A stretch of 64,000 bases of DNA from Peribolospora baueri (lineage: Eukaryota), in NCBI GenBank assembly GCA_029717555.1, contig JAMDHS010000001.1:620001-684000 (forward strand), written 5' to 3'. The notes under the pieces were generated by a model. That model saw only the letters and a list, made by a program, of their open reading frames with translations. It had not been told where the DNA came from and made no database searches. Each line of letters opens with the position of its first letter. Positions within the stretch are counted from its first letter, which is position 1. Shown in pieces: positions 29,502 through 47,437 of the stretch. Both the position numbers and the translations under genes were made by a program.

Positions 29502-32500
29502 TCACGCCTTGGACGCCGACACTCCTTCACCACCGCCGCCCTCGGTGCCCGCCGCCAAGCCCTCTGCTGCCGCGCCCCCTGTGCGGAGGGCAGGCACGTT
29601 CCAACCCTCGTTCTGGACGTGGCTGTACTCGCTCCCGCTTCCATCCCCCTCACCTCCAGGCCCCGTGCTGCCCCCCCCGAGACCATACGCGTCCGTTTCG
29701 CCCGCCAGTCGGTCTCGCTCCCACTTGTCGAGCTCCGAAGTCTGCGAAGGGAACGGAGTGTTCGGCATCCGTCAGAAGACTGCAACAAAAGGAACACGCC
29801 AACGCGACGACGTCCGACCCGAGGCAAAACTTACGATGGATCCGTAAGCCATAGAGTCTCGCGCAACTTCGTGGCCCTCGGAGACGCCGCCGCCGTGAGA
29901 GGTTTCCATCTTTCCCAGCAGCAGATGGAACTGAGAGGAGCAGAGATGAGCGCGATCAAAAACATCAAGACATCGAAACGAGTCAGCCCTTCCGCTCAGC
30001 GCCGTCGCCGTCGCCGTCGCCCGGACTCACTTTCTCTTCCAGCTCGTTGATGCGCTGAGACAAGGTCGCGTTCTCCGACTTGAGCTGCTCGTTGTTGTTT
30101 TGAGCAAGGATGAGCTCCCTCTCCACGCCGTCCTGACCGGTGCGCGGGTTCTTGACGCGACCGGAGCCGCCGGTGCCGCGGAGGGCGGTGCTAAGCTCGG
30201 TGTTGAGGTGCTCGTTGAGCACGAGCGTCTCCTGCAGCTCCTGGCGCGAGTTGGCCAAGCCGGACGTGAGCCGTTTGACCTCTGCCTCGAGGTCGCCGAC
30301 GCGACGCGACGAGCTGGACCGCTCGTCGTCCAGATCCGCATGGGCGTCCTGCAGCGCCCGGCGCTCGCTCATCAGCGTCTGCACTCGCTTCTCCATTTCC
30401 CGGTTCTCCACCGTCAGCTCGTCGTTCTGAGCAGAGATCTCCGTGAGACGGGTCCGCAAGGCCTCAATGTCCCTCGCCGCTTCGCTCGCCGCCTCGGCGC
30501 CCGTCAACGTCCGGTCCCGATTCTGGTGCGCCGCCGTGACCTCGGCCTGCAGATTGGCGTTTTCTTTCTTGTACTTTGTCAGCTCGTCCTTCATCCTTCG
30601 AAGCATCTTCTCCGTACCCTTGACAAACTGTACCGCCGTCTGGTAGTCGTTCTCCAGCTGCGCCAGGCGCTCCTTGTAACTCGCCGTGCTCTCGTTGAGC
30701 TGCTGCTCAGCCGCCTCGGCGCGAGCCTCGGCGGAGCGAACGGCCTCCGCATCGACGGAAGCGCGGTTGGAGCGCGAGGAGCGCTTGGAACGGAGGTGGT
30801 CGAGCTCGCGGCCCATCTCGTCCACCCGACTCTCCGCGTCCTGGAGGTCCTTGGCGCGCTGGTCCAGCTCGTTTTCGAGCTCGCGGATGCGCTTGTCGGC
30901 GTAACCGGACTTTGCGCTCAGTTGCTCGTCGTCCGGGATGGTGATCCCGCGGTCGGCCATAAAGTTCCTGAGCAAGCTCGATTTGACCTCGGCGGCTTCG
31001 ACGGCGCGGCTCTTCTCCTTGGCCTCCTTGTCGGCATGTGCCTGGGCCTCCTTGAGCCGGCCCACCTCCTGGAGCGAGATGGCAAGCTGAGAGCGCATGG
31101 CCGCGAGCTCGGATCGCAAACCGGCCTGCTGCTTCTCGAGATCCGCGTTCTTGACTTTGAGGTCGGCCAGCGACTGGTGCGCCTCATCCGCAGCGGAGCG
31201 CGCTTGGGCGTGGAGGTCACGAAGCGAGCTCGACTCGTCCTCGAGGGCTCGCAGCTTCTCAACGACGTGCGGCGCGTCCGCAGGATCGCCCCGATTGGCA
31301 TCGCTCTCCCTCTTGGCGGCCAAGATGTCGGCCAAACCGCCCATGGCGGCCGTGCGCATCGACTCGGTCTCCTTCCTGTGCTCCTCGTAGAGCGACTCCA
31401 GGTCCACGATCCTGTGCTGAGCCGACGTGGCGGTGCGTTTGACGCTCTCAATCTCGATGGTGAGCTGGACGTTGGCGTCCTCCACCTCGGCCAGCCTCTC
31501 CTTGGTGCGCTGGTACAACCGCTCCGTCTCCGACGCTCGACTGTTGGCAGCCAGTAACGCGGACTGGACCTGCTCGAGGGTGACGAGATGCTGGTCGAGG
31601 CTCTTCTTGGTCTCCTCGAGCTGCGACTTTGCGTGCCCGTGCTCCGCCCGTGCCTGTTGGTTCACGCTCGTGAGCTGTGTGATCTGCGCTGCGTGCTCGC
31701 GAAGCTTGCTCTCGTTGCCCAGATGGTGGGAGTACAACTCGGCGTACTCCCCCGAAGCCTTGAGCTGGGCCTCCTCGGCCATCCTGACTCGCTTCGTCGT
31801 CTCCGCAAGGCGTTCTTCGGCCGATTTGCGGAGCTCGCGCTCGGTGTGCGTCTGGCCGCGCAGCTCGGCGACCTTGCGCTCAAGGAAGGACACCTCGTTC
31901 AGAGCGTCGGTCAAGCGGCCCTCAATCATCGACGAGCGCTCGCGCTCCAGACGAGAGACGTCCGCCGATGACCCCGCCTCGAGCGCGGCCACCTTGGCGC
32001 GGTAGAAGGCCGCCTCCTGCAATGCGACGGTCCGAGCCTTTTCGGCATCGGCGACGCGATCGGACTCGCCTTTGGCCTGTCGTGCGATGACCGCCTGGGA
32101 CCAGGTAATAAAAGTGAGGGAGGAATCACACGCGAGGCGGGCGAGGGAGAAATCGCCATCAGCGTACAGACCGATAGCCACGTCAAAGGAGAACGGAGAC
32201 GGAGTGAGGAGACGAGACGAGACGAGAGAACGAAAGCAAGCCTGCAACGCACCTTGGCCTGCCCCAACTGTCCCTTGAGCATCATGAGCGCCTCCACCAC
32301 CTTTCTCTTCTCCCCGCCACTCTCGGTACCAACGTCTCTGACCGCCTCCATCGGATCCTCCGCCTGGTTTGTGTTCGAGCCCGCGCGGTCGGCCAACAAC
32401 TCTGCAGCGCTGAGACCGCTGAAATGGTGGAGGCCGTCGGGCGCGTTCGATGGCGGCACGAAACCCTTCATGGCGGCCACCGCCAGCGCGGCCTTGAGCC

Positions 32501-35210
32501 AGGCCTCTCGCTTGCGGAGAGCCTCGACGTCCGCAGGGCCGCTTCCAGCTCCGGCAACGACACCGTTGGCGGTCGAGGCCATGGATGAGAAACCGTTTTG
32601 TGTTGCAGTGGGGCTCCGAGCGCCGTAGTAGAAGCCGTCGGCGGGTGCAGCAGCACCGACGATGTCGTTGGGTGACGCACTTCGTCCATTCGCACGACCC
32701 AGTTGCTGCGACGAACTGGCATTAGACGTCGGCGAGAACTGTGACGGCGACACCCCACCCGCTCCGTTGGCGCCGCGCTGCATCGCCTCGATAGACCGCT
32801 GAGAACGAAGACTGGGCTGACCGGGCCCGGCTATCGGTGGAGACATGGCTCGCATAGGCAGGCCCGACGGGACCACGCCAGCTCCCTGGCTGAGCTGTTG
32901 CTGTAGACCCTGAGCGGCGGCGCGCTGTGCCTGGATATGGCCCTGCGTCGGGCTCATGCTCCTCTCTGGGCCAAGCACTGACTGCGACTCGGCTTCGCCG
33001 ACGGTCTGCCTAAAGCGAGGGTCGGCGGTCTCGAAAGCGGCGTCACCCTCGCGGCGAGGCCGCTGCGGCGGTCCACCAACGGTGCCGCGCTTGGCCTTGC
33101 CATCCTGCTGACCGACGACCTGCTGCTGCTGTTGCTGCTGTTGAGGATTCCAGCCCGGTTGTCCCGGGGGACTGCCAGGGCCTTGCAAGACCTGGCTCAT
33201 CAAGCCGTTCACAGGCTGGCCGGCTTGACGATGCGTCGGAGAGGCTGCGCGCTGGTTGGCCATCTCATCGCCCACGGGAGACGTTGCGCGCTGAATGGCC
33301 GGCGGGGACACGTTGGGTGGAGAGCCGGCGCTGCCGACGGGAGGAGACGAGGCGCCAGCACCAGGGACGGAGGACTGCCGGGCCCTATTGGCGCTTCTGT
33401 TATCCGCAGGATACTTGATCTTGGCTGAAAGGAGCGATCATCGCCGCGAGTCAGTCATCGTCGCCAACGCACCCGCCGCCCCTTAAATCTCAAGCACGAC
33501 GCACCAGTGTCGAGGACATGCACGAGCGTAGGATCGTCCGGCTTGGCGCCGGTGTACGACTCTCCGCCGAGGACGACGACCTTGCCGTTGATGGCGGCCA
33601 ACGAATGTCCAGAGCGACCGGAAGGGGAAGGGCCCATGTTGGCGAACATGTACCAACGTTGGTCTGCGGCGCGAGTGGAAAGGAGGGACGCCAAAGACGT
33701 TCAGTCGTTCGTTCACATGGCTTTAGTATGCGCAGAAAGCGGAAACAAGAAGAGCCGAGCGACGCGACGCGACGTGGCCGCACACTCACTGGAGATTTTG
33801 AAACTCGCCAAATCACCCAAGTCCTTGCCGTCGACACCTCTGCCACCGAAGACGTACATGACGTCGTCGACGAGGCAAGCCGAGTGACCCTCTCTGGGAA
33901 CGGGGATGTACCCGATGCAAGAGAGCTCCTTCCACTGATTGGTGGGCACGTCGAAGCACCACGTGTCATTGTAGTGGTACTGCCCGTCGGTGCCGCCAAA
34001 GATGAGGATCTTGTCCTTGTACGTCACGCTGGCGTGTCCCGTTCGCTTGGGAGGAACGTCGCTGCTGGCCGGCTTGACGAGCTCCCAGGTGGGCTTGCCT
34101 TTCACTGGTCGCGAGCGAACCCGGTCCACCGCAGCACATGCACGAAAGGCGAGCATGATCAGCATGCGTGACCACCACCAAGACGGGCCAACGATCACAG
34201 TGGCTATGCCGTCGCGACTCACGAGTGTTCAGGTCGAAACTCCACAGGTCGTCGAGGAAAGTACCGTTGACCTGTCCACCGAAGACGTAGAACCGGCTGC
34301 CGACGATGCTGACCGTGTGACCGTATCGGCCGACAGGAGCAAGGCCACCAGCGGACGGGGTCGATTCCATAGAGCCGCCGGGGACACGCACTCGAGTCCA
34401 TTCTCGCGTGCTGAGATTCAAAAGGTACAGCCCCTCATCCTGCGGGTCCTCCGGTCTGACAGTGGTGTCGCCGCCCCACAAGATGAGCACGTTGCTCACG
34501 AGCACCGTCTTGTGTCCGACACGCGGCGGCGGGATGTCGCCGGTGGTTTGCAAAAGCGTCGCGTTGAGGCCATTGGGGGCAGAGACGGGCATGCCTCCGG
34601 GACCCTGCACGGGGTTGGGGTTATTGATGCCGATGGTATCCAGAACGTAGATGTCGTTCTTGACGCTCTCCCGGACGAGACCGCCGAAGAGGTAGACTTC
34701 GCCGCTGGCTGACGCCATGGCGTTGACAGCGTGGCCGTATCGGGGGAAGGGGTTTGGCGAGAGAGGCACGTTGGGATTGCGGTTCGCCGGCGCGGTGAGC
34801 AAGGACGGCGGGTTCATGGAGATCCGACGCTGAGACCACGGATAGACGATATTTGTTGAGACGGTATTTGGTGGCCGACTGGCTGGCGGCTGATCGTTCA
34901 CTCCAGGGGGGATGCCGCCTAGCTGCGGGATTCGCGCGGCGTCGACGCTTGGACCGGGCGGCCCCGGCGGTCCGGCGTACTGTAGCTGCTGTCCTATCTG
35001 CGACGGCGGCGAGGACACCCCGCCGGGCGGCCCTCGAAGCATGCCGGAGCCGGCGGGTGCGGGCCCTCCGGGGGAACCAGGTCCAGTGGTGGAGGCGACG
35101 CTACCGGTCGTCGAGTGTGCGCTTCCGGCACCGGTCGAGGAGCCGGAAGCGGCAGCAGCAGCGGCCTTTTCAGCGGCCCTGTCGGCCTTGGACCGACCGA
35201 AGATGGCCAT
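29502..35210 (-). CDS. KEL1: Cell-polarity kelch-repeat + coiled-coil protein (Tea1/Kel1/Kel2 family)
   Basis: YPWSQRR, then kelch repeats (PFPRYGHA..YLFGGL, PPPRVGH..ILWGGD, VGRYGH..YVFGGQ, PKRTGH..IFGGTD, PREGH..YVFGGR, SGRSGH..VLGGES), a Gln/Pro-rich linker and ~750 aa of coiled coil including QLENDYQTAVQFVKGTEKMLRRMKDEL. Confidence 0.88.
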
Positions 35211-35617
35211 GGTGGGAGGAGGGAAGGAGGAAGGAGAAGGACGCCCGGGAAAGACAAGGGCGTCTGTGTGCGGGTGGAGTAGAGAGCGAGTCGCGCACGG
35301 GCGAAGGAAGGACGCGGAAAGGAGAAGAGAGAGAAGAGCGTGAAGGGGTTCGTGACGGAAGGCGAAGGAAGGGAGGAAGAGGGAGAAGAAGAAGAAGGGG
35401 CGAGGAGGATGGGCGGAGATGCGTGAAGACAAGGCCAGCACAGCAAGCAAGAGTCGGCCTGACGCGTTGAGTGGAGCGCAGCCAAGTGCCGCCAAGTGCC
35501 GCCGGTGGTGAGCGGAAACGGAAGAGAGAGAGGGGGGGAGAGGGAGGCTGTTGAAGGAGAGGTGCGGGGGAAAGGAGAGTGGAGAGGGAGGGGTATGTCG
35601 ACGGTGGACGCCTGGGG

Positions 35618-35650
35618 GGTGGTGGTGGTGGTGGTGGTGGTGGTGGTGGT
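35618..35650. repeat. (GGT)11 trinucleotide repeat upstream of the kelch gene
   Basis: Directly visible. Confidence 0.9.
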
Positions 35651-36317
35651 GTTGGTGGCCGTGGCCGTCGTCGACGGTGGTGAGTGAGCCAGTGAGTGAC
35701 TGCACAGACAGACGCCCGGCGGGCTTTCGCTCGGCTGGCTTAGCGCGGGTGGGGGTGTTGGATGAGAACTCCCGCGAGGCGTACTCTAGCTAGCGCGCGA
35801 CAACCCTATTTTCCTCGTCCGCCTTCCCTGCGCGTGGCCCACGTGGCGAGCTAGAGGGCCACAAGACGAGCGACGTCCTGGCGCCGCCCTTCGGTGGAGC
35901 AGGCGGGCGCTCACTCGCTTCTCGATCCATGCCCACCTGTGCATACGCGTTGAGAGCCAGAGAAGTGTGGAGCACGTGACCCATCTTGTCTCGTTGTCCT
36001 CGCGCTCGCATTTCGCACCCAAATGAACGCCTGCCTTCTCGCTCGCAACCACGGAGAACGGACGGAACGTGTGCGAGCGCCGCTCGACAGGTTCAAGCTC
36101 TCTTCCTTCGCCCTTGCGTCGCCGAGTGACGGACCGCCCAGGTCAGGCCGATCAAGCGCGGCGATAGGCAAGGCAGGCAGGCAGGCAGGTAGGCTCTCTG
36201 CGTACGTCACAGTCTGACTAGTCAGTCCGTACGACGCCCGAAACGCATTCGTCCACACTCGCAACGGCGTCTGTCTGCCCTGCCCTTAGATGGGAGAGCG
36301 GTCGCCACTCTTCTTCC

Positions 36318-36351: not shown

Positions 36352-36488
36352 CGCCACGTCAAAAGCGCACGAATGCGGCTCTCGAACGCCACGCCACGCG
36401 CGGCAGACGGACAGGACAGGACAGGCAGGCTTGGCGGGAAGCAAAGAGCAGGAAAGGAAGAGCAAGTTTTCCTATTCCTATTCCTATC

Positions 36489-36680
36489 TTGCCGAAAAAA
36501 CGAAGGGCTTCTTCCGTCATTTGCACTGGCTGGCTGGCTGGCTGACTGGACGAGCGGCCGTGTCCTATATGTCTATCACTCACTCACTGCGAGACGACGA
36601 ATCGGAGTGAAATACCAGTCGGGAACGATGATGTGCAAAGCCCAACCAAAGGCCAAAGGCCAAAAGAAAACTGGCTGGCG
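36489..36680 (+). repeat. Diverged ~200 bp direct repeat, copy 1
   Basis: Colinear blocks shared with 37471-37686: ccgaaaaaacgaagggctt, tttgcactggctggctgg, ggacgag, tctatcactc, gagacgacgaatcg, agtgaaatacc, agtcgggaacga, gatgatgtgcaaa, caaaagaaaa. Confidence 0.9.
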
Positions 36681-37412
36681 GCGTACGAGCACTACATCGC
36701 GCGGGTTATTATTATGCTCCAGGGGTGGACCTGTCTGTCTGTCTGCCTGTCTGTCTGTCTGTATGTATATGGATGGACCCGGGAGGGAAGGCCACGGCAC
36801 GCCACACCACACCCTACGAAACGACACGAAACGGAACGGACCGGCTACTCTGCTCATATCGTATCATATCATACCATATGCCGGCGGCGTCAAGAGAGGG
36901 AAGGCCCGCCGATGAGCCTGCGTGCGTGCCTACCGACCTGCCTAGCTGCGTGCCTGCCTTTCTTCCTTCGTTCACCACATCTTCACTCCTCCTCCCAAGC
37001 CCCGGCACCTCACCTCGCAAACTCACTACTGGCCTGGCCTGGCCTCCTCCTCCTGTAATAGACGTCCCGTGCCGAAGCGAGTTTTCATCGCTGCCTTGCG
37101 GAAGAGGAGAAGTTGACCTCGCTTTGCCCGAGACGATACGACCAAAGAAGGAAGGAAGGAAGAAAGAAAGAAGGAAGAGGTCCAGAACAGCCGCCGGGCC
37201 GATACATTCGGATTACGGAAAATACAATTGAGAGAAGCACGAGAGAGAGAGCGAGAGCGAGGTTGGAATAGAGACAAGACGAGGAAACGCGAGAGAAAGA
37301 GATGGACTGGGAAAGGGAGCGTGCGAGAACGAGAGATGACGAGAAGGGAAGGAAAGGAAAGGAAAGGGTAGGTGTGGTGCGGAGGTACAAAAAGGGTATG
37401 CAAGAGGTAGAT

Positions 37413-37440
37413 AAAAAAAAAAAAAAAAAAAAAAAAAAAA
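37413..37440 (+). repeat. A28 homopolymer
   Basis: Directly visible, about 30 bp before repeat copy 2. Confidence 0.95.
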
Positions 37441-37470
37441 CGTCCTAGCTGGCATTCGCGCCAAACGAAT

Positions 37471-37686
37471 TTGCCCGAAAAAAACGAAGGGCTTCCTTCC
37501 GTCGTTTGCACTGGCTGGCTGGTTGGCTGGACGAGTGGCCGGTGTCCAATCTATCTATCTATCACTCGCTCACTTGCTCGGGAGAGACGACGAATCGCAG
37601 TGAAATACCCAGTCGGGAACGAACGATGATGTGCAAAAGCCAAACCAAAGTCCAAATCCAAAGCCCCAAAAGAAAAACGGGCGGCT
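37471..37686 (+). repeat. Diverged ~200 bp direct repeat, copy 2
   Basis: See copy 1. Ends about 55 bp from the stop codon of the NRPS-like gene, in its likely 3' UTR. Confidence 0.9.
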
Positions 37687-37742: not shown

Positions 37743-40700
37743 TCAGGAGTACGTCGTCTGCCGGGTCATCGGGTAGCCTGTCGGCTTTCTTCGCTGTCGG
37801 AGCTGACGCGCGGGCCTGTCAAAGGGGAAGACGGTTCGATTCAGTCATCCGTCTGTCCATCAGTCAACCATCAATCAGGCAGACAGGCAAATAGGCAGGC
37901 ACCCTCCGCCCACTCACCATCCAACATACGTCGCGCCTTCCTCTGCAATCTCTCCAGACGCGACAAGGGTATGCTCAAGGAGCATCGAATCCGGCTCCAT
38001 CGACGCTCCCGACAACAGACGCGACCCGGACCGAAGAGCGCAACCGTCCCCGATGCGAAGCTTGTTCAGGCTAAACTTGCCTCTCGAGTTGATGTGGGCT
38101 ACGACAGAGCAATCGTCGATCGATACTCGGTCGCCCAGCTCGACTAGCTCCGGTTCGGTGAAGTAGAGCGACGGCTTGCCGCTCGCCCACAACGCGCAAT
38201 CTTTGCCAATCTTGGCGCCCATCAGGCGGAAGAACCAGACGATATAGGCCGAGCCGGTCATCGCGCCGAGCGTACCCCCATTTCCGTGGCCCTTCATGAG
38301 GATGGTGGAGAGGACGAGGTGGAGTTGCCATCGCTGGCAGTACGAGCTCCTGTCCCAGTCGTACCGACCCTCCTGTCTTCGACCGATGACGATCCACTTC
38401 GTCACCACGACCCAGGCCATGGCGACGAGCGACTGGACGGACATGACGACGACAAAGGAGCCAAAGATGATGCCGTACAAAATGCCAAACCGATACCAGC
38501 GAGGCCCAAAGACAAAGGCGAACCATGGGTGTCGCATGCCGGACGCGCGGACGTTCTCGAGCACCTGCACGGCGCACACGCCGGCGGAGGACCAGAAGAG
38601 GGACGAGAAGGCGCCCATGAGCACGTTGATCAAGACGATGATGGCGTAAGGGATGACGAAAAAATTCGCCTGACGACGGTAAAAGGCGCGACCGAACGGG
38701 GTGATCGTCTCGTCCTCTCCGCCGCCGTAGCTGTAGGCGTCCTTGTTCACCGGCGTCTTGCCAAACGACACCGCCTCGCCGTTCTTGCTGCCCATCCACA
38801 CGCTCCCATCCTCGTAGTACCCGTTCCGCCTCGACAGCGCCCCGGATCCCATGACGGCCTGACGACCGACGGTCGTGCCGGGCATGAGCACCACCCGGTC
38901 CGCGATCATGGCCCCGCGCCCGATCTTGACTTTGGCGCTGCCGATGCTGTCCGTGGTGAACACCTCGGACCGGGACCCAAACACCACGTCATCTCCCACC
39001 TCCAACAGCTCCGGATCCGGGCAGTAGATCCCGCTTCCGGGCCAGTAGACGCGCTTGCCCACTTTGGCTCCCAGGGCGCGGTAGACGACCGAGGTCATCT
39101 CGTAGTGCGTGCCGAGGATCTTGAACGCCCGCTTGAGCTCGGCCTGACCGGTGAGCTGGGCGTTGATCCAGCGTCGGAGGAGGGACCACTGGCCCTGGTT
39201 GCGCATCGAGGCCTCGGTGTTGAGGCCCATTAAACGCTTGACGATCACGCCTAGCACGAGTTGCAAAAGCGGCGGACCGAGCGAGCGCGAGACTCTGGCG
39301 ATGTAATGCCACATGATACGCTTCGGGTAGGCGAACCATTCGATGATTTGCTGCACCGGGTCGATGCGGCCGATGTGGAAGGGCGTGGAGAGGAGGCCGA
39401 ACAGGGCGGCGTACCAAGGCAAGTAGCTGATGAATTTGATGAGCGTGACGATGGGAAAGCCGATGAACGCGACCATGGCCGGGTGCGGGCCGGGCACGTT
39501 GCCGCGGTTACAGGCCGCGAAGCCGTCCGGCAAGGGGCGGTCGTACGAGCTGGCTTGGGGACCGTAGACGGCGCCGTCGTCGAGAACGGCGCCGGGTGCG
39601 ATCTGGGTGTACGTGTTGACGACGCAGTCGCGACCGATGACGATGGGCTCGAGGCGGAAGTAGCCGTCTCGTTCGACGCAGAAGCCACGGACGAGGGCCT
39701 TGTCGATCCGGCAGCCGTCGTGGAGGGTGAGCAGGTCGTACTCGCCGAGCCGTGCCTGCTTGTCGATCTTGACGTCCTTGCCGACGTTGGCGCCGAGCAT
39801 GCGGATGTAGAGCTTTTCGAGAGCGGGGTGCATGGAGAAGATGCCTCGGCCGGCGGTGCGGAGGGACTGGTTAACGATCCACCACCGGAGGTGGTAGCCG
39901 GACCACATCCGGTACTTGCCCGGCCTCGTCTTTCCCAGAACGATCCACTTGAACACGATGGCGGTTAGCGGACTGATGACGCGGGACGTGACGCGGGCGA
40001 TGATCATGGAGGCCAGCAGGCACCCAACGCGCTCCCAGAAGACGTCGTGGATGAGGAGGGAAAACTGGGAGAGGGCGTGGAGGAGGATATTCCACGTCCA
40101 GGCCGCCTTGGCGGGGTAGAAGAGGAGCAAGGGGAGGATCTGGACGAAGAGGGCGAGAAAGCGAGTCTGACTCGGCCGTCGTCCCGAGCGGTCCTCGTCG
40201 ACGAGCGTCTCCGAGTCGTCCTCGATGACGTACTCGTTGTCGCGGCCCATCAGGCCTCTGCCGCCGCTGCCGGAGCCCTTTTCGTCGGCGCCGGCCATCA
40301 AGAGGCCCATGTCGAGGCCCTCTTCGGCCTCGATGAGGCGGGCGATGCCTTCGATGGTGCTGTTGTTGAACAGGGTGGCCACCTCTAGCGTCACGCCGGT
40401 CTCCTTGCGGATAAAGTGGACGAGGCGACCGAGGAGGAGCGAGTTGCCTCCGAGGAGGAAAAAGTCGCTTTCGCTCGTGATCGTGCCGGCGTCCATGTCG
40501 AGGACGTTGGCCACAATGTCGCGCACGACCAGGCTCTTGGAGCTCATCGCGGCCGTGTTCTTCTTGCGCATGTCCTCCTCCATGGCGTCAAAGTCGTAGG
40601 AGCCGTCGGCCTTGCGGAGCAGGTCCGAGGTAAAGACGTGGAGCGGGGAAGGGACGACGTAGCCGTGGAGACGGCGGCTGAGCGCCTCGTCGATCTCGGC

Positions 40701-42814
40701 GGCCATGACGTCGCAGTCGACGTTGTCGTCGACGCGGATGAACGCTTCCGGCGTGCCGTCCTTTCGTTTCCGGATCGCCGCCTCTCGCACGCCAGGGATT
40801 CGGAGGGTGGCGCGCTCGACGGCGCGCACGTCGACGCTGACCCGCTTGCTCGGGATCGGCTGGGTCAAGGGGGCGTTCTTGTTGGGCGCTTTGGCCTCAA
40901 AGTGTCGAAGGAGCGGAGGTACATCGTCGCTGAGGCAACCTATGCCGAGACGTTGCCCGAGCTTGATGCGCAACGGCTTGCCCGCGTTGTTCTTGGGAAG
41001 GTCGTCCATGTAGACGATGGCGAAGGGCCATTTGGACGGGTGGAGGTGGGCGCGAAGCGAGTTGTGGAGCTCGTTGAGACCGATCCGGGGTTGGTTGGGG
41101 ACGGGGACGACGACGATGCCGATGGTCTCCTGGAGGACGTTGTGCTCGATGGCGAAGGCGAGGGTCTGCTTGATGCGGGCGCCGGCGGCGGTCATGACGG
41201 CCTCCTCGACGTCGAAGGGCGAGATGACCTCGCCGCCCTTGTTGATGATCTCCTTGCTCCGTCCGGTGATGAACAGGTAGCCGTCGGCGTCCATGTATCC
41301 CAAGTCGCCCGAGTCGAACCAACCGTCGCGGGAGAACTCGTCGGTGTTGAGGGGAACGGACGGGTCAGGGCTCACCTCGTAGCCGTCAAACGTCGGCAGA
41401 CCGCGGACGGAGACGGCGCCGATGGAGCCCCGGGGCAGCTCGCGTTCCTTGTTGAAGGGATCGCGAATGGAGAGTTCGGGGCCGCAGGCGAGGCCGGAGC
41501 AGCCGGGCCGGTCGAGTTGGTAGTCGGTCGGAGGGGAGGCGATGGGCATGCACTCGGTCATGCCGTACGACGGCAGGACAGCGGTGCCGACGAAGGTGTC
41601 CTTGAGCTGCTGCGCGAGAGTCGGCAGGAGACCTCCTGCGGCGTTTGCGATCATTCGAACGCTGGAGAGGGACGGAAGGGAGGTGAGCGACGTCAGCGAG
41701 CGCACGGTTGGTTGCCCGGGGCGGCTCTTGAGATGAATATGATCGCTCTCGCGGCGGCACTCACGCCGTGTCTCTGGACGGCACGACATCGTCGGGCCGG
41801 GCGGCCAAGATGGCGTGGTGCATGGTGGGCGCGGCGTAATACCATGTGGCCTTGAGTTCGACGGCGACGTGCCACCAGTTTTGTGCGTCGAAACCTGGGC
41901 ACATGATGGCGGAGGAGCCGGAGAGAACGGGAGAGAGAAGGTTTCGGACGATGCCGCCGACGTGGAAGAGGGGCATCATGTTGACTGGAAAGAACACGGG
42001 AAGCGATTGAGCGAAGGAAGAGCCATGATCGCCTGCCTTGCCTGGCTCACTCACGGTTGACGTCGGTGGGAACGAGCTCCCAGGAGTGAATGACACACGC
42101 GGTGCCGACGATGAGGGTGCGGAGCGTGTAGGGGACGACCTTTTTCTTTCCGGACGTGCCAGAGGTGTGGAGGACGAGGCTTTGGTCGGAGAGCTGATGC
42201 AAGCGGTCAAGGGGTGGGACGGCGTGGAGGGGGTCGGTGACGGGGGGACGCGCGCCGGTGGAGGAGGGGAGACAGTCCATGTCGAAGAGGCCGGCGGGGC
42301 CGTCGTCTCTGGCGTCGACGAAGATGATCTCGATGCCGAGGTCATCGTGGAGCTGCTGGAGCTCGAGGCGTTCGACGGCGTCTCGGGTGGTGACGACGGC
42401 CTTTGCGCTGAGCCTCTCGACGTCCTCCCTGAGCTCGGGTGCGGTGGCGCTGGCGTTGATGGGTGCGCAGGTGTGGTAAGCGGCACAGCAGATGAGCATG
42501 ACGGCGAGCTCTGGGCCGGTGGGGAGCATGAGAGCGACGCGGTCATTGCGGAGGAGGTTGGGGGTGAAGGAGGTGGGAAGGGAAAAGGCGGCTACAAAGT
42601 CCTTGAGGGTGCGGTGGTCGAGGGGCGGCCGGGAGGTGTCTGGGGACCATATGGCGGGGCGAGAGGTGGAAGGGAGGCAGTGGTAAAGAGAGTGGATGCC
42701 GGGGTTGTCGACGACGTTGTCGGCGAGAAAGTCGCCGAGCGGTCGGTCATGGCAGCGAGGAAAGGAGAGTAAGTGAGCGAGGGGGAGTTGGTGGGAGGGA
42801 GGGGCGAAGGCCAT
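37743..42814 (-). CDS. Membrane-bound NRPS-like enzyme: CoA-ligase-type A domain, carrier (T) domain, three TM + left-handed beta-helix units (Pls / polymalate-synthetase-like), about 1,598 aa
   Basis: A domain: LHTSGTSGKKK, NMMPLFHVGG, SYGMTECMPI, WFDSGDLG, GRSKEIINKGGE, LPKNNAGK. T domain: DFFLLGGNSL (Ser codon 40440-40442). Three hexapeptide units starting LGANVG, LGAKVG and MGAKIG, separated by hydrophobic segments; two are preceded by KW..G....G.Y.W motifs. The last unit ends YVGW|PA. Introns 41985-42054, 41662-41764 and 37816-37917 restore the frame (4797 nt). Confidence 0.9.
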
Positions 42815-44232
42815 GTCTTGGGCGCGAAGGCGCGTCAGGGGGGTGGACGACGGGGCGGAGGCGCTTCACCGGGGGGAAGGGGGGAGTGGTGGTAGGGAGT
42901 TTGGTGGAAGAAAGGTGAAAGAAAGGGAAGGAATGTGGTGATAGAGAATGTCGAGGCCAAGGTGAGCGAAGCGTAAGGAATGTCGGTTGTTCGGTCGCCG
43001 AACGCGCCGTGGCGGCCGCGCAAAAGAGAGATGGATCGATGTGATCGGCGCGGGCGAGGGCGGGCGGGCGGTCAACGAGGGGAATGGCGGGCTGGCGGTG
43101 GGTGCGCTGGCCAGGCGGCGGGGTGGGTGGTGGTGGTGGGAGTGGGAGTGGTGGTGGTGGTGGGAGTGAAAGTGGAAGTGGGAGTGGGAGCGAGAAGGAG
43201 CGTGCGATGACGACGAGGGCGAGGCGAAGGAGTAACTGAGTGGGAGGAGTCGAGGCTGCGCACGCGCTAGACGACGAGCCGGAGGAAGGAAGAATGAGTG
43301 TCGGCGCCAAAGGCTCAAAGGAGTGAGCGAGCGAGCGAGGGGGCGATCAGGCGACGACGAGCGACGAGCGACAGCGACAAGCAACGGGCGGATGAAGGTA
43401 TGTATGATGTATCTATCGAGCGGACGCTTCTAAGCGCTGGCGTTGGCGTGGCTGGCGGTTGCTTGGCTGAAAGGACAAAAAAAACGCCGAGCGAGAAGAA
43501 AAAGTCTTGGGCCGCTGTTCCCGGTCAGGTGCGTAAATGACGTCGAAATGCCACGCGGGCTGAACGGGGGACACACACACACACACACAGCCAGCCACGA
43601 CGAGACGAGACGAGACGAGACGAGACGAAAAGGCCATTCGAAGGCAAGACAGGTTGGATTGGAAAATGGTAACACCGCATTCTGGGCGACGCGCGACGAG
43701 GCGAGACGAGGCACGACGGGATGGGATGGGATGCGATGGATGGAAGCAACGCAACGACAAAGACGTCGTCGGTCATCTTCTGTTCCTCCAAATGTCCCGC
43801 CGTGTCCTTTTCTTTTCTTTCCTTTTCTTTTCTTGTCCTATCCTGTCTTTGTCTAGTGACCCCCGTCCTCTCGAGGGGTTCGCCCCTTCGTCACCGCCTA
43901 GCTTAGTTACGTTCCACCGCTAGAACCCAACAACCCACGAAAGCGAAAATGGACCCGACAAAGGCCGAGCCGTGCATGGAATGAACGGCGACTGGCCCAA
44001 TCAACAAAAGGCACGTCCTCACCCTTACCCTCACCATTACTCGTACCCTTACCCCTCATGTCCGGGTTTGTACCGGTGGCATGTCTGCACCTGCGTCGAG
44101 TAGAGTCGAGTCGAGTAACCCCTTCCTTCCTTCCCCCTCACTCGTCCAGTCCACCTCCACCCACCCACGGCAAAGAAAATCTCCGCAAGGAGACTCGCTT
44201 GCTCCCGTCGCATCGCACAACAGTAAGCACAC

Positions 44233-44410: not shown

Positions 44411-47101
44411 TCACGTCACCGCCGCAAAGCCAGCTAAGCAGAACACGTCCGCCGCCACCTCCAAGCCATCGTTCCACCTCGGCGCCCGACCCGCTCTCGC
44501 CGCCCATTCGCCCACATGGTCAGATGGCAAGAGACGATTCAAAAACGTGCTCCGTCGCGTCGATAGACCGCCGCGGCATACGAGCAGGGCTGCGAAGGCG
44601 GAGCGGAGCAATGGTGGTGCATTGGACGACGCTGCGGACGAGGACGAGGATGACGAGGATAAGGCGGACACGAGCAAGGTCAACAGCGAAAGAAGGCATG
44701 CGCAAAGCGTCAGGCCCGCCACCGTATCTTTTTCCACCGCCGCCGACGACGACGCCGTCAAGACGGCTACCACCCAAAAGCTCATGGCGGCCGTGCGCAG
44801 AGCGGCGTACACCCCCGTACATCCGACGGCAGTCCTCCCTCCTCCAGCGCCGGCGGCCGACGAGGACGTCTGCAACGACCGGTCGCCCAAACTCAGGCTT
44901 CCCTCAAACAAGCTCTCCAAGCCCGTCGGTTGTTCCGGCGGGAAAAACCGTTGCGGAGCCAGCTCTACGTTCCTCCCCCACGACGACGACCCGCCGCCGT
45001 CCTTTGTTTGACGAGACCCCGTCGGCGGCAGGGCTTCCCACTCCATCACGTCCTCCTCCCGTATCCCCTCCCTCTGCCATCTCCGCTCACCAGAAGGAGA
45101 AGGCGGATCTGCCGCTGCCGGAGAGGACGCGTGCGACAGCAGGGCGTCCAGGGGCGAGAAGGACTGGCTTGCGAGGCCAAACGTCACGTTCGCCTCCGTC
45201 GTGCCACCACCACCACCACCTCCTCCTCCTCCTCCCGGACCCGCAAGCTCGCTCGTGACTCCAAACGTCGGATGGACTCGCGCCGGAGCCCGCGCCGGAC
45301 GTGGCGATCTCGACGGCGGGTTCGTCGACAGCGATAACGATGCAAACGGGTCTGAGCCACCGCTCGCCTCGACCCTGCTCAAAGTCGAAGTCGACTTTGG
45401 CGATCCTTTGTTGTTCTCACTATCCCTCTCCGTTCCCTCTCCAAGCCTGCCCCCCGCGTCCTTCGTCACCTTGCGCGATACGAGCCTCACTCGGACGGGC
45501 CCTTGAAGTTTCAGGCTCGTGAGCGACGTGTAAAGAGCCTGTGAAAGAAGAAAGTGGAATATCCAGGAGCAAGTGAGCTGGTCGTCTGCCCAAGGGCGGC
45601 ACACGTCCGGTACTCACCACACTCTGAAACAAGGCCAGCGCTGCGCTCAATCCCGCGACGAGGCTTTCACCCGGAAAGGGTATCAGGTCGCCCAAGAAAG
45701 GCGGCGGAACGAGGAGAAGAACGAGAATCGCACGAGAAACGAACAGGATCCCTTGCGCTTGCTGTCAAGGCCACGATGGCGTTATCGTCAATACCACTTA
45801 TTCGTTCCGGCACGCGGAAAGGAAAGGAAACGACACAACTGAGCTCACCCGCCAGGCAGCCTTTCCCTGTACCCGTAGCCCCCTCGCTCCGAAACCTCGC
45901 TTCTGATGATCCCTCTGCACTTGCAGCCACGTCGGGTCCCAGAAACTCCAGAGAATGCTCGAGAGCGCCACCGAGTACGTTCGCAAAGGTTTCCCAGAGA
46001 TGAGACCTAGACTGGGGACGAGGCTGAAGGTCGTCGACTCGAGGCTCGGCGACAGGGCCGCATACGCGGACGCGCTGAGGCCAGCGAATGTGGTCATGAC
46101 CCACAAAAGCCCTCGAAGGCGCCACACGTACTCCATCCCCGTCGAGTGCGCCTTCCAGGGTTGTCCCTCCGAGTCCCGCTCCCCCGCCTCGCCTCCACCG
46201 ACAGCCAACGCTCGCGAGCTTCGTTGTCTCTCACTCTCGGCCAGCCAGCCGGCGAGGACGTTTCCGCGGACGCGCCTATTCCGTGTGTCCAGCTCCTCCT
46301 CCACCCGTGGCAGACACTTGGAGCACAAGAGCGGGTACCGTTCCGCCAAGCTCTCCTGGTACACAGGTAGGGCGGCAAGCAGGTCCGGGTAAGACGGGTC
46401 GTCTTCGTCTGGGAGGTATTGCGACAGGAGATCCGTCACCAATCGTTGGTTGGTCAGACACGAGTGACAAAACATCGACTTGAAGCCCGGGGCCGGACCG
46501 GTTTGTTCGCGGAAGGGGGATGAGGAGGAAAGAGAGGAACGGCGAGCGGCGGTCCAGGACGCCGTGAACGAGTGAGACGATGGCGCGCCTGACGGAGACG
46601 TACGTCCACGTCAGTACACACGAGACATCGTCACGCTCCCGCCCGTCAACGAGATCTGCTTGCTCACCTCGCTTTGCAAACGTCTCCTCGTTCAGAGCCG
46701 GATCGTGCATGGCCGGCTCATCCGAGAGGATTTGGCCGTTCTACATGAATGCAGGACAGAAACGAGTGAGCATCGCTTGGCTGTGAGCGACAAGCGATGC
46801 CGCTGGACGACGACGACGGACGTACCTCGTCCGTTCGGTTCCAGCAACCGCACGCACCGCAATACCAACTTCTGGGAGTCCCGACAGCGGTCTGCGCCTC
46901 ATCGATCTCCGCTTCTTTGCCCTTGCCCTTCACATCCGAGCTGCCCCTAGAGCGCCCAAAGTCTGGATCGTACGTGGCGGAACTTGAGGGAGAACGCGAG
47001 CGGTCCGAAGGCGGTAGCGGCGGCACGAGCACGGCGGGGGTGAGGCAGAAAAAGCAGGTCACGCGCGGGAAAGGGCTCCGACGGCGAAGGAGGAAGGACA
47101 T
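44411..47101 (-). CDS. IMA1: Integral inner nuclear membrane protein Ima1 (Samp1/TMEM201 family)
   Basis: Four CxxC pairs (VTCFFC, WYCGACGCWN, FCHSCLTNQRLV..LSQYLPDEDDP, RYPLLCSKC), TM helices, WSFWDPTW, and LAPQRFFPPEQPTGLESLF. Confidence 0.87.
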
Positions 47102-47437
47102 GTCGGTCGGTCGGAGCTGGAGCGAGCGTCGCCCATGCAACGCCGTCTCGTATAGGACGAGGGAAGGACGCGTGAAGGCGTTGTATTGAACGAGGGCGAG
47201 AGCGAAGGTGGTGGTGGTAACGCTGCCGGTGGTCGCCGGCTAAGGCAGGGAAAGCACAAGCGTTGCTGCGGCCGATCGTTTGGCGTACCTTGAATGGTCG
47301 TTATTTGATTGTCAACCTTTGAAAGACGCATGCGGACGAAATCAACGCGGCTCTGATCCAATTACTCTCAACCCAGGTAGCCCGCCCGCCCTTCGTGCGA
47401 GTGACTGACTGACTTGCGTGCTACGAACAAATGCAGT

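Follow-up and report, generated by a model that had tools for sequence, protein, structure and literature searches.

A polymalate synthetase-family gene in the basidiomycete Peribolospora baueri and the domain architecture of its product

The DNA analyzed here is a 64,000-nucleotide stretch of the Peribolospora baueri genome (the window; positions 620,001 to 684,000 of contig JAMDHS010000001.1), which carries on its minus strand a long gene encoding an adenylation (A) domain, a carrier domain, and a terminal half of hydrophobic segments and left-handed beta-helices. This layout raises the question of which acid the enzyme activates and to what that acid is joined at the membrane. We find that the gene product is an end-to-end homologue of the polymalate synthetase (PMAs) of Aureobasidium, and on comparative grounds it is probably a polyester synthetase with a single module, bound to the membrane and either orthologous or co-orthologous to the Aureobasidium enzyme, that makes poly(beta-L-malate).

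The gene and its link to the Aureobasidium polymalate synthetase

The coding sequence runs from an ATG at 42814 to a stop codon at 37743, both ends being exact for the whole gene, and removal of three GT-AG introns leaves 1598 codons with no internal stops (Table 1). The gene model is drawn from sequence and from homology: the protein's alignment to the Aureobasidium homologue passes all three intron junctions without a break, and an A-subdomain, the carrier, and all three terminal repeats lie in a single exon of 1247 codons. This is a real, intact gene, and a preliminary description of the locus was right to treat 37743..42814 as one gene, given the exact start and stop, the open spliced frame, and the end-to-end homologue; the motifs it quoted are all found in the spliced protein, the last one split by intron 3.

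The Aureobasidium pullulans protein THW02430.1 (1690 amino acids [aa]) aligns with aa 47-1585 of the P. baueri protein (~1540 aa) at 40% identity (E = 0). The polymalate synthetase itself is reported as QHD40385.1 (PMC11905612) or MN551082 (PMC9909216), and is described as the product of a 5049-bp gene, a membrane nonribosomal peptide synthetase (NRPS) with A, thiolation (T), and "C-like" domains and no thioesterase (PMC9210645, PMC11286673, PMC10751350). Four primers for the knockout of PMAs (MN551082) are given in a supplement table of PMC9909216, and all four translate to peptides that occur in order at aa 300, 481, 635, and 820 of P0367 and P0371, two Aureobasidium cluster representatives (the peptide of the fourth primer trimmed of a restriction-site letter); in P0409, from A. 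melanogenum, three of the four peptides match. The knockout made with these primers is reported to be free of polymalate (PMC9909216). Since the primer peptides map in order, the Aureobasidium homologue is the published polymalate synthetase, an identity that runs through the primers and not through a direct alignment with QHD40385.1, which is absent from the 30 members listed out of 80 read, of 178 in two clusters. Furthermore, when the first 500 residues of the Aureobasidium enzyme were searched, the named Aureobasidium entries among the 120 listed matches represented the same gene (at least 88%). The likeness to polymalate synthetase, which the preliminary description had put forward, is thus borne out by full-length homology at 40% identity and by the knockout-primer peptides.

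Substrate pocket and domain architecture

Pfam profiles recover PF00501 (exons 1-3), PF13193, PF00550 (E = 3.5e-13), and PF00132 (E = 8.5e-14), and no C, TE, or R family is listed for the protein at E values up to 0.1. The region after the carrier models as a helix bundle with beta-helices, in agreement with the earlier statement that canonical C, TE, and R domains are lacking. The NCBIfam model TIGR02353 matches three stretches of the protein (E = 1.5e-47) with a score of 162.4 bits, below its curated cut-off of 423.1, and the A region is scored best by acyl-CoA ligase models. All the profiles that the preliminary description had proposed to scan for (PF00501, PF00550, TIGR02353, and hexapeptide repeats) are therefore matched; a layout like that of Pls, the synthetase of epsilon-poly-L-lysine, stands, with TIGR02353 in three stretches and three helix pairs and three beta-helices in the model, whereas membership in the TIGR02353-type Pls/PosA family does not.

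With respect to the A domain, the nearest relatives of solved structure are oxalyl-CoA synthetases (E values of 1e-48 to 1e-40), followed by malonyl-CoA synthetases, consistent with the CoA-ligase type like Pcs60/AAE3 first proposed. The pocket residues of AtAAE3 have been named, and Ser289 and His319 are described as specific to oxalyl-CoA synthetases (PMC8905533). We observe that AtAAE3 Ser289, His319, and His216 correspond to Ala335, Pro366, and Gly263 in the P. baueri protein, as mapped via the close homologue P0002, whose motifs match. This replacement of the oxalate-specific residues argues against oxalate, which on the pocket sequence would be an unlikely substrate, and for a roomier pocket. 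All nine positions mapped to the oxalyl-CoA synthetase pocket are the same in the P. baueri and Aureobasidium enzymes, as are 30 of 33 hand-picked motif positions. The Asp that binds alpha-amino groups is missing, as had been noted: PosA Asp217 aligns with Val262, and the region of the side-chain-binding Glu221 of PosA reads Val-Arg. Arg267 and the catalytic Lys555 are each present in 47/47 aligned family rows, and the motif ending in Arg267 occurs in 287 of 301 fetched proteins of at least 1450 aa (a set that includes near-duplicates). In aryl-acid A domains the position of Arg267 lines the pocket floor, and this residue may bind the second carboxylate of the substrate.

Between the first A-subdomain and the carrier lies a second A-subdomain (~40841-40551) that was absent from the preliminary description. 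In a model of aa 455-790 (predicted local distance difference test [pLDDT] score of 93.9), aa 461-570 and 601-697 both align to the C-terminal subdomains of adenylating enzymes (Z scores of 13.5 and 12.4; root mean square deviation [rmsd] of ~2 Å), and the carrier fold comes after the second of them. A profile of the second subdomain, built from 47 family rows and run against 50 targets, matches three Pls/PosA proteins at E values of 1e-8 to 8e-8 and the family's own first A-subdomain more weakly (best E = 1e-4); the source alignment held Pls rows, which may slightly favor them. The catalytic lysine is missing from the second subdomain in the nine rows displayed, and a single-sequence search of it against solved structures gave chance matches only (best E = 0.63). 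That the second A-subdomain is nearer to Pls/PosA than to the first one suggests a chimeric origin, and the simplest reading, which we infer, has the core of a Pls-type A domain exchanged for a CoA-ligase A domain, with the Pls-type subdomain staying behind, where it would serve as a non-catalytic spacer. A description of the second A-subdomain of the PMAs family was not found in our literature search of papers outside subscription.

The AlphaFold2 model of aa 818-1574 (82-row alignment; pLDDT of 94.5, predicted template modeling score of 0.92) shows three pairs of long helices, six in all, and a left-handed beta-helix after each pair, placing the three hydrophobic and hexapeptide repeats at the coordinates first proposed for them. 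On hydropathy, from which membrane insertion is predicted here, five of the six modeled helices pass a Kyte-Doolittle threshold of 1.5 and the fourth fails, a divided result for the transmembrane prediction suggested at that stage. The three repeats match one another (E values of 4e-4 to 3e-11), and fold searches return trimeric beta-helix acyltransferases, each covering one repeat at Z scores of about 12, while none of the solved structures listed spans the whole terminal domain. In such acyltransferases the catalytic His sits between neighboring beta-helices, and by this analogy His1516, in the third repeat, is a candidate catalytic base; it is present in 47/47 family rows and in all three Pls/PosA proteins, and its motif occurs in 285 of the 301 fetched proteins. 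In 15 plasmid records, bacterial Pls/PosA proteins align with 80% or more of the terminal domain at 22-24% identity. Nine Arg and two His are conserved in the family at positions that are not basic in the three Pls/PosA proteins, versus six family-specific conserved acidic positions, a count made on an alignment of 20% identity; such a basic surplus would fit a polyanionic product.

Family breadth and candidate functions

A search with exon 3 returned 514 proteins at E values up to 1e-10 among 8000 scored candidates; of the 120 homologues listed, 119 span 97% or more of the query in one protein, and 114 bear both AMP-binding and PP-binding domains. Named matches come from smuts, Malassezia, and mushrooms at 55-67% identity, and a search of 50% clusters (20 of 150 listed representatives looked up, 13 with names) adds Dothideomycetes, Erysiphe, Pezizomycetes, Sordariomycetes, chytrids, Halteromyces, the diplonemid Artemidia, and a marine protist transcriptome record. 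Additional searches yielded many more ascomycete members, and the leads from the ESM Atlas were bacterial Pls-like proteins and one ascomycete cluster only. The family reaches chytrids, Mucoromycota, and protists and is not rare, so that the gene is not an unusual one. Its members are mostly named acetyl-CoA synthetase-like, oxalate-CoA ligase, or peroxisomal-coenzyme A synthetase. The concern that cluster-based mining could miss the gene is countered by antiSMASH, which called the Aureobasidium copy an NRPS-like cluster (PMC11905612); the real mining problem is mis-naming as acetyl-CoA or oxalate-CoA ligase.

Two features of individual homologues are recorded here. P0045, 62% identical, is labeled as the fern Adiantum nelumboides and probably represents fungal DNA in that assembly. 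Many Agaricomycete homologues (P0039, P0053, P0062, and others) bear precomputed RING-finger Pfam matches (PF00097, PF13923, PF13639) that are missing in the P. baueri protein and the smut copies, and which may be a small fused domain or a chance motif.

A phylogeny, as had been proposed for this gene, was run on 50 rows, comprising the P. baueri protein, 46 proteins hand-picked from ~450 fetched ones, and three bacterial Pls/PosA proteins, of which the Acinetobacter row agrees with the published PosA numbering at 8/8 residues; support is given as Shimodaira-Hasegawa-like approximate likelihood ratio test (SH-aLRT) and FastTree values, and the root is a long branch. In the IQ-TREE tree of the terminal domain, Basidiomycota (SH-aLRT of 100) are sister to an ascomycete clade (100) that holds the Aureobasidium enzyme, with 99 for their join. 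The shape is unchanged in FastTree trees of the terminal domain and of the A region (join, 0.96). The ascomycete clade includes two chytrid rows, other chytrids and Mucoromycota falling outside the join, and the P. baueri protein lies inside the basidiomycete clade but outside the sampled Ustilaginomycotina and Agaricomycetes, with weak placement. The trees fit inheritance from the common ancestor of Dikarya and make the P. baueri protein probably orthologous or co-orthologous to the Aureobasidium enzyme, the 50 hand-picked rows leaving room for hidden paralogy. As separate observations, P0376 and P0380 (the chytrids Geranomyces and Thoreauomyces) nest in the ascomycete clade, possibly by horizontal transfer, and P0327 (Dactylellina) groups with Hortaea and Fulvia and not early in Ascomycota, which may reflect transfer or contamination.

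For Aureobasidium it has been proposed that the A domain forms malyl-AMP, that malate passes onto phosphopantetheine, and that the terminal domain makes the ester bonds (PMC9210645, PMC11286673). In P. baueri, L-malate would likewise be adenylated to malyl-AMP, its free carboxylate gripped by Arg267, and then loaded on the phosphopantetheine arm at Ser734. The three beta-helices would together act as a single pseudo-trimeric acyltransferase, with His1516 activating the acceptor's 2-hydroxyl, and the chain would grow against or through the six-helix bundle and be released without a thioesterase. The three matches to the phosphopantetheinyl transferase family elsewhere in the genome and the single gene copy (the terminal domain matches once in the assembly of 22.7 Mb and 668 contigs) count for the polymalate reading. 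Several points weigh against it. Neither a product nor an activity is recorded in the literature searched for this organism or for any other basidiomycete, and the family occurs in many fungi not described there as polymalate producers. Several fungi have two or more copies, which makes hidden paralogy possible. Identity to the Aureobasidium enzyme falls from 50% in the A domain to 40% in the terminal domain, and sameness of the A pocket does not determine which acceptor the terminal domain uses. Moreover, the evidence for PMAs consists of deletion and partial complementation, with one third of production restored, and the enzyme is described as never isolated (PMC9210645).

Rather unlikely, though the most probable of the alternatives, is that the enzyme activates malate, or a small hydroxy- or dicarboxylic acid like it, and passes it to a fixed membrane acceptor (wall polysaccharide, lipid, or short oligomer), in which case bulk polymalate would be a speciality of Aureobasidium. 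In fold, the closest matches are O- and N-acyltransferases acting on sugars and polysaccharides, the family is widely kept, including in powdery mildew, Malassezia, and protists, and the terminal domain is just 40% identical to that of Aureobasidium. Fungal polymalate is described as membrane-embedded, slowly released, and probably polysaccharide-bound (PMC9210645), and deletion of PMAs is reported to alter the molecular weight of pullulan (PMC9909216). Set against this, the sole member studied is linked to polymalate, homology with the Pls/PosA domain that forms homopolymers extends over the length of the terminal domain, and the key residues are common to the P. baueri and Aureobasidium proteins.

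A name such as "oxalate-CoA ligase" would point to an enzyme activating oxalate or malonate, with acyl-CoA or acyl-carrier as its product, and oxalyl-CoA and malonyl-CoA synthetases are indeed the best solved-structure matches; we consider this very unlikely, since the three AtAAE3 pocket residues are replaced, the carrier serine and the entire terminal domain are conserved, and a separate ligase match, 35% identical to the A region, lies on another contig. Oxalate also has no hydroxyl or amine to polymerise. The separate match (G000:C329:133018-133617) is perhaps the true oxalyl-CoA synthetase.

Still more improbable is a Pls-type synthetase of a cationic homopoly(amino acid), as the TIGR02353 match, the 22-24% identity of the terminal domain to Pls/PosA, and the shared His1516 might suggest. 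The score of 162 bits against a cut-off of 423, the A domain, only 19% identical to that of PosA, and the Val and Val-Arg at the PosA Asp217 and Glu221 positions speak against it. In addition, Epls, the Pls of fungi, is an enzyme apart, with a lysine pocket; it is reported to be 51% identical to Streptomyces Pls and to occur in a few Ascomycota, mainly Clavicipitaceae (PMC7179176). That the locus is a pseudogene, or separate A and membrane genes, is scarcely credible: no supporting point was found, the 1247-codon exon joins A-subdomain, carrier, and three repeats, nearly all listed homologues (119/120) span at least 97% of that exon, and the key residues are intact.

Returning to the polymalate synthetase reading, a broader version can be put forward tentatively. 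The family may be an ancient eukaryotic polyester synthetase, in which a CoA-ligase A domain was grafted onto a Pls-type subdomain-carrier-terminal part with a change from amide to ester; smuts, Malassezia, mushrooms, Fusarium, Trichoderma, powdery mildew, chytrids, Mucoromycota, a diplonemid, and other protists would then, the pocket being nearly invariant, all make unnoticed polymalate or a malate-ester coat, and a member would be the polymalate synthetase of Physarum, an enzyme given as still unidentified in a 2022 review (PMC9210645). Polymalate is a biomedical and industrial polymer whose synthetase is described only in Aureobasidium in the literature searched. The P. baueri gene is an ordinary family member, and its value lies at the family level: the Aureobasidium gene is tied to hundreds of mis-named proteins, which provides test subjects in tractable basidiomycetes, and the family reading offers a modeled structure of the domain that polymerises, Arg267, Ser734, and His1516 as candidate catalytic residues, and sequences that can serve as a search probe for the Physarum enzyme.

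Genomic setting and comparison with known systems

Table 1. Features of the P. baueri gene, in window coordinates
Feature	Position	Strand	Basis
Whole gene, polymalate-synthetase family, 1598 aa	37743..42814	minus	spliced translation and homologue alignment
Exons 1-4	42814-42055, 41984-41765, 41661-37918, 37815-37743	minus	spliced translation and homologue alignment
Intron 1, 70 nt, GT-AG	41985..42054	minus	translation; homologue alignment unbroken across junction
Intron 2, 103 nt, GT-AG	41662..41764	minus	translation; homologue alignment unbroken across junction
Intron 3, 102 nt, GT-AG	37816..37917	minus	translation; homologue alignment unbroken across junction
Adenylation core, acyl-CoA-ligase type, ~aa 47-460; introns 1 and 2 inside	41262..42676	minus	Pfam, NCBIfam, structure matches, alignment
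A-domain pocket residues	His261, Val262, Gly263, Arg267, Ala335, Pro366	minus	mapping to solved structures/PosA
First A-subdomain, aa 461-570, catalytic Lys555	40932..41261	minus	Pfam, family alignment, fold match
Second, degenerate A-subdomain, aa 601-697, without catalytic lysine	40551..40841	minus	profile search, model, fold match
Thiolation (carrier) domain, aa 706-770; phosphopantetheine site Ser734 at 40442-40440	40332..40526	minus	Pfam, alignment, fold match
Helix hairpin 1, aa 828-901, predicted membrane helices 1-2	39939..40160	minus	hydropathy, model
Left-handed beta-helix 1, aa 950-1032	39546..39794	minus	Pfam, model, repeat comparison
Helix hairpin 2, aa 1054-1138, predicted membrane helices 3-4; helix 4 weakly hydrophobic	39228..39482	minus	hydropathy, model
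Left-handed beta-helix 2, aa 1190-1284	38790..39074	minus	Pfam, model, fold search
Helix hairpin 3, aa 1332-1419, predicted membrane helices 5-6	38385..38648	minus	hydropathy, model
Left-handed beta-helix 3, aa 1474-1577; His1516 at 38096-38094	37806..38222	minus	model, family alignment

No biosynthetic cluster is seen among 56 chosen open frames of the window, a scan outside which short exons fall. The families found among these frames are kelch, Ima1, amino-acid permease, G-beta, proteasome, RibD, DUF2417, and fasciclin, and most frames matched nothing. The downstream neighbor (29983-35789, minus strand) is a kelch-repeat gene with a long coiled-coil-like tail, and upstream lie an Ima1-domain gene (44411-47239, minus strand) and an amino-acid permease. 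Just downstream of the stop codon we observe a diverged direct duplication of about 250-350 bp (36430-36680 and 37340-37685), the copies being ~1 kb apart with pieces 71-96% alike. For the Aureobasidium PMAs promoter, as one regulated by calcium/Crz1, a Crz1 heptamer and a second motif are reported (PMC11286673). Copies of the heptamer occur here at 43448-43454 and 43592-43598, 630-780 bp upstream of the ATG (2 versus 0.25 expected, shuffle P = 0.03, in a region picked post hoc), and the second motif is absent upstream of the gene; the heptamers are a lead only.

This is a known but little-studied kind of enzyme, to which we add the tested PMAs link, the breadth of the family, and the chimeric architecture; common as the family is, these make questions about polymalate testable. 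Our literature search of papers outside subscription returned nothing relevant on a PMAs-Pls link (including a term search in PMC8403587) or on the PMAs family in basidiomycetes. The P. baueri protein and PMAs share their domain order, including the second A-subdomain, lack a thioesterase, have identical mapped pocket residues, and are similar in size (1598 aa versus ~1688 aa), the difference being that the host here is a basidiomycete. Reviews place six membrane helices of PMAs "in the N-terminus" and name a "C-like domain" (PMC9210645, PMC11286673), whereas in our alignment and model the helices fall within the C-terminal half, and the fold there is a triple beta-helix instead of a condensation fold.

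Compared with the oxalyl-CoA synthetases AAE3, LsOCS, and Pcs60 and with MatB, the nearest solved relatives of the A domain, the protein keeps the His-Val A4 motif and the catalytic Lys, but the oxalate-specific Ser and His are replaced and the A domain is fused to a carrier and a membrane domain. Each repeat has the fold of maltose and serine acetyltransferases, GlmU, NeuO, and LpxD (best compact matches with Z scores up to 12.6 and rmsd of ~3 Å over ~145 residues), with the difference that three repeats here stand in one chain upon a membrane bundle. PosA has been modeled with six helices in three pairs and three beta-helices (PMC10522769). Pls, PosA, and Epls thus share with the P. baueri protein the A-T-terminal layout, the alternation of three helix pairs with three beta-helices, and the conserved His of the third repeat; they differ in that the A domain here is of the CoA-ligase type without the amine-binding Asp, that an extra A-subdomain is present, that the terminal domain has more conserved arginines, and that the chemistry would be that of an ester instead of an amide. 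The enzyme would work like Pls and belongs with polymalate synthetase.

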